From a virus, in UHGV virus genome UHGV-0126733: a stretch of DNA of 11,744 bases; one strand, given 5' to 3'. Position numbers and translations under genes: made by a program. Each line of letters opens with the position of its first letter. The stretch's first letter is position 1. The notes under the pieces were generated by a model. That model did not search any database, was not told where the DNA came from, and saw only the letters and a list, made by a program, of their open reading frames with translations. Below are positions 3,304-11,103 of this stretch, piece after piece.

Positions 3304-3630
3304 TTACTCCTTAGAGCCACCAAACTTATTACCGATTACTCTCATTGCAGCCCCACGAATAGCATCGACCCCGATTAGCCCAACGCCGCCACCAATGGCA
3401 ACAGAAAGAGATTTAGGCCATCCGACATACTCAAGAGCGGATGCAAAAGTCAGCGTCAGAGCACCACAGAGCAAAATCTCGAGCGTTTTTCGTTTCCAGC
3501 CCCCACCACCGCCAAAATATGCAATGCGCAAGCCAGCCATAACAATCGACATAATCACTGCGCCCAGCGGTGTGTCTCCACGCCACCAGCTCTGGACCAA
3601 CTCCAACCAGGTATTTGGGTTATGAGGCAT
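3304..3630 (-). CDS. Putative holin (about 3 TM segments), not lambda S family
   Basis: 108 aa immediately upstream of the endolysin. Three hydrophobic segments (LGAVIMSIVMAGLRIAYF, LEILLCGALTLTFASALEYV, LSVAIGGGVGLIGVDAI), a GGGGG motif and a charged C-terminal tail. The call rests on position and topology; the family is not recognised. Confidence 0.7.
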   Translation of the reverse strand: MPHNPNTWLELVQSWWRGDTPLGAVIMSIVMAGLRIAYFGGGGGWKRKTLEILLCGALTLTFASALEYVGWPKSLSVAIGGGVGLIGVDAIRGAAMRVIGNKFGGSKE

Positions 3631-3781
3631 TTGTAGTTATCTCTCACCTCGCTGATACAGCAGGTGCAAATTGAGGGAACATCATGTACCGCAAATCAGA
3701 AGCGGAAACGTAAAAGAGGCCGAGCCAATGGATAACTGCGGTATAGACCAGGCTCAACAAATAGCCGGGTCCAGAAACGAC

Positions 3782-3803
3782 AAACCCGCTCGACGGCGGG
3801 TTT
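3782..3803 (-). terminator. Hairpin about 150 nt upstream of the holin; candidate tR'-like late terminator
   Basis: Perfect 8-bp stem AAACCCGC / GCGGGTTT with a 6-nt loop. On the minus strand it is followed by GTCGTTTCTGG (moderately U-rich). Interpreting it as the Q-antiterminated terminator is inference from position. Confidence 0.3.
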
Positions 3804-4030
3804 AAGCTGTGTGGCGAAGTGACCACTCTTAACACGATACAATAGTTTTTGCGTACGCGTTAGCATTTTTGATGGAAGTTAATGGTTGTTAATCTTATAC
3901 TCAGTAAACAAAATTTATGCCGCCTTGAGCATGATGCGACATTAGGCACATGTTTGGATCTTCCTCGAAGATTCGTGCGGTAGCTATGCTCAAAATCCAA
4001 TCAGCTCATAAAACATACTATGGGTTTTAA

Positions 4031-4780
4031 ATGCTCATTCCAACATCTCTATCAAAACAACCAGTAATCGAAGCTGCTTTCGAAATGCGTTTTTCTAAAG
4101 AAACACAAATATCGGAAATAGTTCCAGGGTTTCTTTTTCACGCTCTAGGTTGTACAAAACCAGTAATTAGTTTACCACCCAGTCAAATACCTAAAAATGT
4201 TCGTGAGGGAGATGAACAATTACATTACGCAGTTGTCAGTCGCCTCGAAATCGAAGGGTACTATATTGGACTAAGTGACCATGGTGTTGTTGTATCCACC
4301 AGCACCAAATATCAAGGGTGGAGTCATTTTAGAGAAAAAATCATTCATGTATTAAATGAGCTTAACAAATTAAATTTAAATGACAACATCATCCGCTACT
4401 CATTAAAGTATGTAGATTTTTTCCCAAAAGAAGACGATTCTAATTTATTTGATAAGCTAAACGTCAGCTTAAATATGGCTGGCGAGTCTATGTCTAATTA
4501 TCCGATCAATATCAGAATCGATAAAAATGAAGGCGCATTTCTAAATATAATTCAAATATTATCTCATGCTTTAGTCATGTCAGATAATGGAGAATTTAAT
4601 AAAAAAGGACTAATCCTAGACATAGACAGCATTAGGCAAATCACTAATACTGATGAAATAGATAAGTTTAAAAACGAACCCAAAAAAATTCTTGATGATC
4701 TTCACGCCTGTAATAAATTAGCTTTCTTTAGTTGCCTTAAAGAGTCAACAATTCAAGAACTAGAACCATCCTACAAATAG
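4031..4780 (+). CDS. Hypothetical protein, first gene of AT-rich cargo operon (249 aa)
   Basis: Clean ORF, soluble (no signal peptide or TM segment), AT-rich codon usage. First of three co-oriented, tightly spaced genes. No catalytic motif recognised. Confidence 0.65.
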   Translation: MLIPTSLSKQPVIEAAFEMRFSKETQISEIVPGFLFHALGCTKPVISLPPSQIPKNVREGDEQLHYAVVSRLEIEGYYIGLSDHGVVVSTSTKYQGWSHFREKIIHVLNELNKLNLNDNIIRYSLKYVDFFPKEDDSNLFDKLNVSLNMAGESMSNYPINIRIDKNEGAFLNIIQILSHALVMSDNGEFNKKGLILDIDSIRQITNTDEIDKFKNEPKKILDDLHACNKLAFFSCLKESTIQELEPSYK

Positions 4781-4795
4781 AAATGGTGGTATGAT

Positions 4796-5140
4796 ATGTA
4801 TCCGTCTCATCATGTTTATCGAGCTCAACTTCAAGTATTAACTTTGGTTTTATATAGTCTGCATATAACTGCATTAACAGACATTGCCCAAAATCAACAG
4901 CATGGTCCTCAACAAAGTTTAATCGTCAAAAATCACGCTTTGGAGTATAAGTCTTCAACTACCGATTCAGTTCATTCCATCACACAAACATATAAAGCAG
5001 GGAGCACAATCTCAGTTGATCAAAGACTTGCAGTCTCGATGACAAACTTTTATGAAAAATTATCAACAAACCAGGTGTCTTTAGGCAGTGAAATAAATAA
5101 AGTCGTTCATGCTTCACTGTGGGATTTATACTTGGATTAA
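4796..5140 (+). CDS. Hypothetical small protein, second gene of cargo operon (114 aa)
   Basis: GGTGGT Shine-Dalgarno about 6 nt upstream of the ATG. Its stop TAA (5138-5140) directly abuts the GTG/ATG of the next gene, suggesting translational coupling. It fills the 360-bp gap between the flanking genes. No recognisable domain. Confidence 0.45.
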   Translation: MYPSHHVYRAQLQVLTLVLYSLHITALTDIAQNQQHGPQQSLIVKNHALEYKSSTTDSVHSITQTYKAGSTISVDQRLAVSMTNFYEKLSTNQVSLGSEINKVVHASLWDLYLD

Positions 5141-5143
5141 GTG

Positions 5144-5758
5144 ATGAGTAATAACATTTTTGATATCGAGAAATTCAAAGATCAAATTCCATATTATTTA
5201 ACAGCTCCTCAAAAAGAAGGGCTAATAAATGCACTTAGAGATTTCCCTGAAAACACTAACTACTACCTTAGCAATTATCATGATGATCTGAAAAATGCTG
5301 CACTTCAGGGAGATATATTTAAGGAGCTTACAGTATATTCAATTAAAGGGACTAAAAAAACACGAGGCATTATATTAAGCAACAGTTGCGATATAGATAC
5401 AAGTAATAATCGTGATGTGCCAATGCGTGCAGTCTTTGCTCCGTTAGTAAGTTTATCTAAGTTCGAAGCTATTCTTCTCTCCAACGGAGTTTCTAAGACT
5501 TCAATAGATAGCAAAATTGATGCTATAAGGAAGCAGTTAATTACTAATATTTTTTATCTTCCTGAATCAGACAACTTAGAAGAATGCATCGTTTTTCTTG
5601 ATGATGTATACCAATTACCAACGGAAGAATTACAAAAACTCTTGAATGATAAATGCAAAGCCATAACTTTAAGTCAAGTTGGTTTCTACATTTTACTATT
5701 CAAAATATCTATTCACTTTTGTAGATTCCATGAAAACATACAACGATTCGATCATTAA
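5144..5758 (+). CDS. Hypothetical protein, third gene of cargo operon (about 204 aa)
   Basis: ORF starting at ATG 5144 (track uses the GTG at 5141). AT-rich, with a hydrophobic/amphipathic stretch near the C-terminus (VGFYILLFKISIHF). Followed immediately by a terminator. Family not recognised. Confidence 0.6.
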   Translation: MSNNIFDIEKFKDQIPYYLTAPQKEGLINALRDFPENTNYYLSNYHDDLKNAALQGDIFKELTVYSIKGTKKTRGIILSNSCDIDTSNNRDVPMRAVFAPLVSLSKFEAILLSNGVSKTSIDSKIDAIRKQLITNIFYLPESDNLEECIVFLDDVYQLPTEELQKLLNDKCKAITLSQVGFYILLFKISIHFCRFHENIQRFDH

Positions 5759-5785
5759 GGCGGTACTACCGCCTTTTATTATTTT
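5759..5785 (+). terminator. Rho-independent terminator of the cargo operon
   Basis: GGCGGTACTACCGCC hairpin (5759-5773; 6-7 bp GC-rich stem) followed by TTTTATTATTTT (5774-5785). Begins 1 nt after the operon stop codon and overlaps the stop codon of the convergent Q gene. The reverse strand lacks a U-tract, so it is unidirectional. Confidence 0.6.
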
Positions 5786-6128
5786 ACACAAGTATACTTA
5801 CAACCCCCTCTATAAAACCGATTGCGGTTTGCAACTCCTTCCTAATAGTGCCATCAGAGCACCTTCTCTTTTTGGCAATAGTGCGTAATGAGATACCAAT
5901 AACAAAGTGGGATATGATGAGCTCATATTCCTCTGGTTTATACCTTCTCAACCGAGCCACACAACTGTCTATCATAATGCCTTCGTCATCATCACACTGA
6001 ATCCGTGACTTTTTGCCATGAGGTAAAAGCCCCTTGAAGCCTGCTGCTACCGGCTGCCAGTCCACACCACTGTTGTCTGCTGCAGCCCATGCTCCCCAGC
6101 GGTCCAATACTTCATACATATCACGCAT
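5784..6128 (-). CDS. Late-gene antitermination protein Q (QuuD / phage-82-type family)
   Basis: From ATG at 6128: MRDMYEVLDRWGAWAAADNSGVDWQPVAAGFKGLLPHGKKSRIQCDDDEGI...CSDGTIRKELQTAIGFIEGV matches the E. coli QuuD-type pattern as I recall it (ERWGAWAA, AAGFKGL, SRxQCxDDD, CSDG, IEG). The track ORF begins at an upstream TTG (6143); the ATG has GGAG 8 nt upstream. Confidence 0.85.
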   Translation of the reverse strand: MRDMYEVLDRWGAWAAADNSGVDWQPVAAGFKGLLPHGKKSRIQCDDDEGIMIDSCVARLRRYKPEEYELIISHFVIGISLRTIAKKRRCSDGTIRKELQTAIGFIEGVVSILV

Positions 6129-6146
6129 CAACTTACTCCACAAAAA

Positions 6147-9335: not shown

Positions 9336-9601
9336 TAAGCCCCCACGTAATTCCCTGACAGATACCACTCTTCACCCGATGCAGCGCGCTTGCTGCTTTT
9401 CCGTAAGCACCGCTCCTTGTTGTTGGGGAATAACCAGGTCCACCTCGCCTGATGTGGCTAAAAGCAGGCACATAACAGCTAAGTATTTTCAACCAGAGAG
9501 AATCCTTAGCGTTGTGGTGAATGCGGCTCAGCGCACGCGGGTTAAGGTTGAGGCTGACAGTCGACCTTCTGTGGATACCCACCCGTCTGGTGTGCAACCT
9601 T

Positions 9602-9710
9602 CGCCAGGCACCGGGAGGCACCCGGCACCACAACTTTATGCTGTGTGTAGTCCTGGCGGTACCAGTTTGTACCCTTGCTTCCGGCTGGTACCGCTCTTTT
9701 TACAAAACAG
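9602..9710 (+). promoter_or_regulatory. Structured leader upstream of yfdP-like gene: nested stem-loops, terminator-like hairpin with U-tract, and boxA-like motif
   Basis: Perfect 10-bp inverted repeat GCGGTACCAG (9656-9665) / CTGGTACCGC (9685-9694) followed by TCTTTTT (9695-9701). An upstream stem CGCCAGG (9602-9608) / CCTGGCG (9652-9658) overlaps the terminator's left arm by 3 nt, so the two structures are mutually exclusive. It encloses a CCGGG-AGGCA-CCCGG hairpin (9611-9625). CGCTCTTTTTACAA (from 9692) resembles boxA (GCTCTTTAACAA). Confidence 0.4.
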
Positions 9711-9838
9711 AGAAGAGCATCACCGGACGACGGGCTCATAACCCAATCCATCCGGGCGGCTGCCACCGCAGGTGTTCTTCTCTGTTTTGTGGAGAAACCA
9801 ACCGACCTTGCAGGGTCGATATGATGAGGAGCAGCAAA

Positions 9839-10201
9839 ATGGCTAGCGAACGCAGTACTGATGTGCAGGCATTTATCGGGGAGCTGGACGGCGGCGTATT
9901 TGAAACCAAAATCGGCGCAGTTCTCAGTGAAGTCGCTTCCGGTGTGATGAACACGAAAACCAAAGGGAAGGTCTCACTCAATCTGGAAATCGAACCGTTT
10001 GATGAGAACCGTGTGAAAATCAAACACAAACTCTCATATGTTCGCCCGACTAACCGCGGGAAAATTTCCGAAGAAGACACCACCGAAACGCCGATGTATG
10101 TCAATCGCGGTGGTCGCCTGACTATTCTGCAGGAAGACCAGGGACAATTACTGACTCTTGCCGGTGAACCTGACGGAAAACTCCGCGCAGCAGGTCGTTA
10201 A
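9839..10201 (+). CDS. yfdP: YfdP-like hypothetical protein (120 aa)
   Basis: ATG at 9839 with GAGGAG 7 nt upstream. Size and position (immediately before the yfdQ-like and yfdR-like genes) match E. coli CPS-53 yfdP as I recall it. The track ORF from 9521 adds an Arg-rich, GC-rich N-terminal extension that looks non-coding. Confidence 0.6.
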   Translation: MASERSTDVQAFIGELDGGVFETKIGAVLSEVASGVMNTKTKGKVSLNLEIEPFDENRVKIKHKLSYVRPTNRGKISEEDTTETPMYVNRGGRLTILQEDQGQLLTLAGEPDGKLRAAGR

Positions 10202-10266
10202 TATCGTTCTTAATAAACTGATTATTTATCTCATCACTGAATATCTTTATATAGTGAGGACTTATT

Positions 10267-11091
10267 ATGTCTCAGAACTTAGACGCAACCGCAATTAATC
10301 AAATCCATGCCCTTATTTCTGCTCAGGGTGTTAATGAAATTATCAGTAAGATTGGTGCCGATGCTGTGGCATTGCCTGAGAATTTCCGCATTCATGATCT
10401 GGAAAAATTTAATTTAAATCGCTTCCGTTTCCGTGGTGCGCTTTCCACTGCCAGCATCGATGACTTTACCCGTTATTCTAAAGATCTTGCAGATGAAGGC
10501 ACCCGCTGCTTTATCGATGCCGATAATATGCGAGCAGTCAGTGTGCTTAACCTGGGTACTATTGATGAACCAGGTCACGCAGATAACACCGCCACTCTCA
10601 AACTGAAAAAGACAGCACCGTTCTCTGCCCTGTTGTCTGTTAACGGCGAGCGTAACTCCCAGAAGTCACTGGCAGAATGGATTGAAGACTGGGCCGACTA
10701 CCTTGTGGGCTTTGATGCTAATGGTGACGCCATTCAGGCAACAAAAGCGGCTGCGGCAGTCCGTAAAATCACGATTGAAGCAAACCAGACCGCTGATTTT
10801 GAAGATAATGACTTCAGCGGCAAACGCTCCCTGATGGAGTCTGTCGAAGCGAAGACCAAAGACATTATGCCAGTGGCATTTGAATTTAAATGCGTTCCGT
10901 TTGAAGGTCTGAAAGAACGTCCGTTTAAATTACGCCTCAGCATTATCACTGGCGATCGTCCTGTACTGGTTCTGCGCATTATTCAGCTGGAAGCGGTGCA
11001 GGAAGAAATGGCTAACGAATTTCGTGATCTGCTTGTTGAGAAATTCAAGGACAGCAAAGTAGAAACCTTTATTGGTACTTTCACCGCCTGA
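10267..11091 (+). CDS. yfdQ: YfdQ-like protein (DUF2303 family), 274 aa
   Basis: Clean 274-codon ORF with a GTGAGGA Shine-Dalgarno upstream. Size and operon context match CPS-53 yfdQ. Family assignment is from memory, not a search. Confidence 0.7.
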
Positions 11092-11103
11092 TTTCATTAC
11101 TGC

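Follow-up and report, generated by a model that had tools for sequence, protein, structure and literature searches.

A mobile three-gene cassette of temperate phages encoding a TIGR04255 protein and a MazF/CcdB-fold protein: a possible toxin-antitoxin-like exclusion module

The described systems closest to the locus studied here are toxin-antitoxin (TA) systems and phage exclusion genes. In the type II pairs MazEF, Kis-Kid and CcdAB, a protein such as MazE or CcdA keeps the toxin inactive, while HigBA-SecB TAC, PaaR-PaaA-ParE, HipBST and MqsRAC consist of three co-transcribed components, one of which modulates the toxin/antitoxin pair. The toxins of the type III systems ToxIN, AbiQ and CptIN are restrained by repeated antitoxin RNAs, and lambda RexAB is a pair of proteins encoded in the immunity region, directly downstream of the CI-type repressor and in the same orientation. 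We analyzed an 11,744-nucleotide (nt) stretch of the virus genome UHGV-0126733 (the window), in which three genes, here numbered 1 to 3, form a cassette between the antiterminator Q gene and the holin gene. The cassette shares its three-part, co-transcribed plan with HigBA-SecB TAC and the systems grouped with it above; to our knowledge, those systems include neither a TIGR04255/TBP-like protein nor a MazF-fold toxin of the kind that gene 3 would encode. Unlike MazEF, Kis-Kid and CcdAB, to which the trio has no detectable sequence homology, the cassette has an obligatory third, larger protein of the TIGR04255 family. In addition, the gene 3 protein is twice the size of their toxins, has an N-terminal extension and Cys/His motifs of its own and is not basic, and the gene 2 protein lacks the AbrB or RHH DNA-binding domain of their antitoxins. 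In contrast to type III systems, the partners encoded upstream of gene 3 are proteins, and no tandem RNA repeats were evident. At least six diverse prophages carry the cassette as lambda carries RexAB, co-oriented and directly downstream of a CI-type repressor. However, RexAB has two proteins instead of three, without sequence or fold relation between RexA or RexB and the trio, and the cassette of the window occupies the Q slot rather than the immunity region.

The trio is a self-contained, horizontally mobile cassette carried as accessory cargo by temperate phages. Calling of open reading frames (ORFs) in the window gave three plus-strand, co-oriented ORFs (Table 1) between Q and a lambda-family holin (3304-3630, PF05106 match), both of which are on the minus strand. 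The cargo slot extends from approximately 3869 to approximately 5790, bounded by Q and the putative late promoter, and the cassette with its native promoter measures about 1.9 kb. The G+C content is 0.30 to 0.38 over positions 3900-5850 and 0.46 to 0.57 in the flanks. The TAA stop codon of gene 2 (5138-5140) directly abuts the GTG ATG of gene 3, which may start at GTG 5141 (205 amino acids [aa]) or at ATG 5144 (204 aa, the RefSeq annotation), and a Shine-Dalgarno-like GGTGG lies 6 nt ahead of the gene 2 ATG. Its own terminator and promoter-like element, its atypical base composition and its variable presence in related phages all mark the cassette as accessory cargo. A sequence-only reading of this DNA had described a co-oriented trio opposite to the late-gene strand in the Q-to-holin interval, with its own terminator and with genes 2 and 3 abutting; the ORFs, the Pfam matches of Q and the holin, the hairpin and the codons at the junction agree with that description. 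It had further suggested a multi-component unit that was acquired separately. The former is borne out by strict synteny across genomes together with translational coupling, and the latter by the AT-rich DNA, the different cargo in the same slot of another prophage (LP50-1, below) and the sporadic spread across phyla.

The 1,955-bp region was found in 92 of 5,426 complete Escherichia coli genomes (1.7%), and each copy was complete and at least 99% identical. Lambdoid prophages of Klebsiella pneumoniae, whose holin is of another family and whose head genes are of the lambda type, carry a 65%-identical copy in the same slot, and the gene 1 protein of this copy was present on at least 750 contigs. 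Of the 185,579 species-level genomes searched with a gene 3 profile, 144 contained relatives; these came from about ten phyla, including Alpha-, Beta- and Gammaproteobacteria, Desulfobacterota, Cyanobacteria, Acidobacteriota, Gemmatimonadota, Bacteroidota, Myxococcota and Muiribacteriota. We examined synteny at 80 genomes or loci from about ten phyla, found via gene 3. Gene 1 lay immediately upstream in 79 of these, the remaining contig being cut off, and gene 2 lay between genes 1 and 3 in every locus checked, including those missed by a weak gene 2 hidden Markov model. The lengths were nearly constant (approximately 249, 110 and 200 aa). Genes 1 and 2 shared an overlap of 8 nt in 66 of 82 cases, and genes 2 and 3 were mostly 7 to 11 nt apart. 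Because homologues in the same order occur in many other genomes, the trio consists of real genes and not of chance ORFs. Apart from the trio, the neighborhoods were heterogeneous: no conserved fourth gene appeared among 293 flanking proteins, of which the commonest family was phage integrase (5 upstream and 5 downstream). Bacterial copies were found near the TA and defense genes ParE, BrnT, PemK/MazE, PIN and Wadjet. Among clusters at 50% identity, the gene 1 profile matched 1,115 at E ≤ 1e-30 and 4,176 at E ≤ 1e-3, and the trio type is therefore a large branch of the wider TIGR04255 family. An apparent fusion of genes 2 and 3 in an alphaproteobacterial metagenome-assembled genome (locus L044, 7668-8615) turned out to be a frameshift of 1 nt that probably reflects misassembly, and it was discarded as evidence of interaction.

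Gene 3 is the best conserved of the trio, with 45 to 50% identity across phyla. Its core (residues ~55 to 193) has the MazF/CcdB/Kid fold, an SH3-like barrel, and is preceded by a 50-residue N-terminal extension with an invariant IPYYLT. The other invariant motifs are LQGD, SNSCD, N88/R90, FAP and S-x-HFCRFHE. Neither gene 3 nor any of 74 homologues had a Pfam match at E ≤ 1 (PF02452, PemK_toxin, included), and its profile retrieved no MazF, Kid or CcdB from the PDB sequences. Kinship to a neighboring PemK was also considered and rejected, with an hhalign probability of 0.1%. Gene 3 also did not qualify as a CcdB gyrase poison, for which sequence membership together with the C-terminal GyrA-binding residues would be expected. 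When motifs were aligned by eye with E. coli MazF, R/K74-G75 may match R29-P30, and the positions after P100, where T52 of MazF would fall, had a hydrophobic consensus (I/L-I/V) with no conserved Thr or Ser.

Gene 2 is the fastest evolving of the three. Its conservation is confined to the C-terminal ~45 aa (F..FY..L...QEPLG.EFE.VL..NLWDLY), which also carry most of a mean net charge of -6, and to a moderately hydrophobic N-terminal segment with a median length of 15 residues; the linker is variable, S/T/P rich and of low complexity. The claim of the sequence-only reading that none of the proteins has a signal peptide is uncertain for gene 2, given this segment. A classical secreted or membrane protein was not established either, the segment being only 15 residues long (median) and many copies lacking an N-terminal positive charge. 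Gene 1 matched the NCBIfam model TIGR04255 over positions 2 to 251 of 252 with 96.4 bits (cutoff, 30; E = 2.3e-27), in agreement with RefSeq. The earlier view that none of the three proteins belongs to a known family thus has to be abandoned, for gene 1 through this match and for gene 3 through its assignable fold. Conserved charged residues of gene 1 alternate along its strands (E18/R20; R122/S124/K126; R162; D197/D199). It had no close solved structure, gave only weak TBP-like matches in a fold search against viral structures and weakly resembled guanidino-kinase/GCL catalytic domains. All three proteins matched PHROG families without an assigned function.

The cassette was present on 38 IMG/VR viral contigs, and in these and in GenBank phages it occupies known sites of accessory genes. 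In enterobacterial lambdoid prophages of E. coli and Klebsiella it lies in the slot between Q and the late promoter. In VW-6S, the pair L090/L091 and four further loci, an S24 CI-type repressor gene lies 43 to 218 nt upstream of it in the same orientation, an arrangement that would imply expression in the lysogen; at one additional locus a 74-aa ORF separates the CI-type repressor from the cassette. Three loci have an integrase adjoining the cassette at the prophage edge, and in Dobby and two other loci it adjoins a P2-type portal gene.

The sequence-only reading had compared the slot in the window with those of stxAB in Stx phages and nmpC in DLP12, and half of this analogy held. In DLP12, nmpC is flanked by quuD and essD on the other strand and is, like the cassette, opposite-strand cargo between a Q homologue and a holin, although its product is a porin. 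The comparison with stx fails because stxAB lies downstream of the late promoter, where it is expressed with the late genes, whereas the putative late-promoter block lies between the cassette and the holin, so that the cassette is upstream of this block and is transcribed away from it, opposite to the late genes. It therefore lacks what defines an stx-type late-operon moron, namely, a position downstream of the late promoter and tR' on the late-gene strand that would make expression depend on Q. When the Q-to-holin interval was compared across related prophages, as the same reading had advised, the cargo proved to be variable. In E. coli LP50-1 (locus L009, 2124-3124), the same slot with the same flanks contains two other genes, encoding 87 and 246 aa, on the opposite strand. 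This pair had no Pfam match and no meaningful PADLOC match and is another uncharacterized candidate. More variable cargo was observed in Klebsiella prophages between the replication genes and dinI (L092, L094 and L096, 13737-15524; L093, 14037-15068), comprising DUF7380 with DUF4209, DUF5677 and a reverse transcriptase, and this interval looks like a second accessory hotspot.

The control elements are listed with the genes in Table 1. The (T/A)TGGAA-N18-TATACT pattern was kept in six enterobacterial copies whose proteins are only ~65% identical, and from this conservation we infer that it is the cassette's own promoter, which would be directed away from the late-promoter block; the element scored below the threshold in a consensus promoter scan. 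The hairpin of the leader (GGATCTT-CCTCG-AAGATTC) has a 7-bp stem, in which G-U changes and one compensatory change preserve the pairing (alignment and RNAalifold, only 6 sequences). Counting this one, the leader has two hairpins that are preserved in this way among the six sequences; it matched nothing in Rfam and might regulate the cassette in cis. The terminator has an 8-bp stem with 5 G-C pairs and a T-rich tail; it begins 1 nt ahead of the end of the gene 3 stop codon, and its tail reaches the convergent Q stop codon at 5784. Only 26 nt lie between the Q stop and the cassette, and the distance from Q to gene 3 was 26 to 29 nt in all enterobacterial copies. At the left edge, the block was conserved in the window, in Klebsiella prophages with the same cassette and in E. 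coli LP50-1 with other cargo, and it is interpreted as the putative late promoter, Q site and tR' region. The element TGCGTACGCGT (3850-3860), which encloses the 8-bp palindrome, was invariant in all phages with this Q type irrespective of cargo and occurred once in the window. Its absence from DLP12 shows that it is particular to this Q type, and it probably belongs to the late promoter or the Q-binding region.

Table 1. Genes and putative control elements of the cassette and the edges of its slot (positions in the window)
Feature	Position	Strand	Description
Late-promoter/Q-site/tR'-like block, left edge of slot	~3780-3868	-	Putative; palindrome GCGTACGC (3851-3858), terminator-like hairpin 3804-3781
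Putative cassette promoter	3872-3901	+	ATGGAA (3872-3877), 18-nt spacer, TATACT (3896-3901); proposed from conservation
Leader	3902-4030	+	~130 nt, conserved in enterobacterial copies; hairpin 3956-3974, then invariant block CGTGCGGTAGC
Gene 1	4031-4780	+	249 aa; TIGR04255 family, TBP-like double beta-alpha domain
Gene 2	4796-5140	+	114 aa; small acidic protein; phrog_5728
Gene 3	5141-5758	+	204/205 aa; MazF/CcdB/Kid-fold core
Rho-independent terminator of cassette	5757-5785	+	Terminator scan and sequence; hairpin AAGGCGGTACTACCGCCTT, then TTATTATTTT
Antiterminator Q gene, right edge of slot	5784-6143	-	PF06530, E = 1.4e-44; convergent with cassette

Our preferred interpretation, to which we assign a probability of roughly 0.45, is that the trio could be a tripartite TA-like superinfection-exclusion or abortive-infection module expressed in the lysogen. 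The cassette would have a promoter of its own, and its transcription would be uncoupled from the Q-dependent late operon. Gene 3, judged by its fold, would act as a growth-arresting effector, and the conserved acidic C-terminal region of gene 2 would keep it inactive, as MazE and CcdA do for their toxins. Gene 1, with its charged sheet surface, might serve as a sensor or regulator, either by binding a ligand or a nucleic acid or by modifying a partner, and the module as a whole would provide the lysogen with superinfection exclusion or abortive infection. The idea of a toxin or defense function gains support from the fold of gene 3, from the sites after CI-like repressors and at other prophage accessory positions and from the TA and defense genes beside bacterial copies. 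A TA-type module fits because the small, fast-evolving acidic gene 2 lies immediately upstream of gene 3 and is translationally coupled to it, and because the linkage of the three genes is strict, their phyletic spread is sporadic and they recur at sites of lysogen-expressed exclusion genes. Several observations weigh against this interpretation. Gene 3 has no sequence-level link to MazF, PemK or CcdB, the catalytic Thr of MazF apparently has no conserved counterpart in it (motif matching by eye), and it is slightly acidic (net charge, approximately -2), while typical MazF RNases are basic. Gene 2 has no recognizable DNA-binding domain, its proposed role does not account for its hydrophobic N terminus, and the 293 flanking proteins gave no obvious defense-island signal at most bacterial loci. 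We regard as doubtful a related proposal, that of an undescribed three-component immune system in which the TIGR04255 protein would detect infection and control a non-RNase MazF-fold effector with a Cys/His site (SNSCD and HFCRFHE); if true, it would mean a new biochemical activity for the MazF/CcdB fold.

The same departures from MazF can be read as lysogenic conversion without toxicity, in which the three proteins would assemble into an enzyme or ligand-binding complex that alters the stress response, metabolism or regulation of the host, with gene 3 contributing its MazF-like fold as a scaffold or binding domain. The lack of clearly retained MazF catalytic residues, a gene 3 protein that is not basic and has invariant Cys/His motifs of its own (SNSCD and HFCRFHE), the charged sheet face of gene 1 with its weak guanidino-kinase/GCL resemblance and the location of many bacterial loci among housekeeping genes all point in this direction. 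Nevertheless, we consider this somewhat unlikely: the characterized members of the MazF/CcdB/ToxN superfold known to us are growth-inhibiting toxins and we know of no non-toxin function for it, a sporadic spread over about ten phyla combined with prophage accessory sites is typical of conflict systems, and the cassette is AT-rich cargo at a site where related phages carry other genes. A selfish role, in which a TA-type module would only stabilize the prophage or genomic island and have no part in defense against incoming phages, would account for the fold of gene 3, for a stand-alone cassette with unrelated genes and other TA pairs as neighbors and for the completeness of all copies examined. 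However, plasmids are a common home of addiction modules and only 2 of 72,556 plasmid records carried the cassette, which argues against plain plasmid addiction. The cassette also recurs where phages keep lysogen-expressed exclusion genes, for example, directly after cI. Addiction alone thus appears improbable, although stabilization and defense are not mutually exclusive. A benefit to the phage in its own life cycle, through counter-defense or control of the lysis-lysogeny decision, might be suggested by the repressor that adjoins the cassette in the immunity region of several phages and by the viral contigs that carry it. We consider it very unlikely, since many bacterial chromosomal copies have no phage genes nearby, the cassette in lambdoids is transcribed opposite to the early and late operons and insulated from them, and it is not core to the phage, being confined to 92 of the 5,426 E. 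coli genomes and replaced by other cargo in related prophages. The notion that the ORFs arose by chance or are decayed remnants in AT-rich DNA has in its favor only that Pfam found no domain in any protein of the trio, and it is refuted by conservation: homologues number in the hundreds to thousands and keep the same order, lengths and motifs, the structure models are confident, and the 92 E. coli copies are intact with at least 99% identity.

The suggestion of the sequence-only reading that this is an undescribed system stands, inasmuch as neither PADLOC v2 nor the papers searched contained the trio. In PADLOC-DB v2.0.0, there was no match at E ≤ 1 for the trio of the window and none at E ≤ 0.1 for the divergent copies of Dobby, Symbiobacter and L090. 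A literature search for TIGR04255, IPR026349, the trio's RefSeq accessions WP_001524096, WP_143370799 and WP_000069423 and the PHROG identifiers returned nothing, which does not fully exclude a prior description. The cassette is not described in the DefensePredictor paper or in the domain-centric discovery paper; Table S3 of the former lists a "TIGR04255 family protein", an entry that was not counted as evidence. If the cassette is a defense or exclusion module, the TIGR04255 family and three PHROG families would gain their first function, and a three-part architecture would join the known toxin-type immune systems. In enterobacterial lambdoid prophages, the interval from Q to the late promoter would then be a cargo hotspot equivalent to the cI-downstream and P2 hotspots. 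Phage therapy could also be affected, through host range, given that K. pneumoniae prophages commonly carry the cassette and that 1.7% of complete E. coli genomes contain it.

Two additional features of the window were noted. A second AT-rich moron, a single minus-strand gene at 1653-2207 (G+C content, 0.32 to 0.38), encodes 184 aa with a transmembrane-like N terminus and lies between Rz/Rz1 on one side and the HNH/small-terminase genes on the other. It matches phrog_6169 (function unassigned), otherwise had only sub-threshold matches to SLATT (E = 0.007) and PADLOC CARF_TM (E = 0.02), and occurs as an identical copy in Salmonella phage 118970_sal3. The Tai systems of phi80 occupy the slot upstream of the packaging module; homology of the moron to them was ruled out, as phi80 gave no match. 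At ~9370-11100, yfdP/yfdQ-like genes come directly to the right of an N6-adenine methyltransferase gene. The prophage copy represented by the window seems to have lost its immunity region, because the otherwise identical prophage of APEC E123 has ~5 kb of early genes at this point (PerC, Rha, YmfL and repressors).

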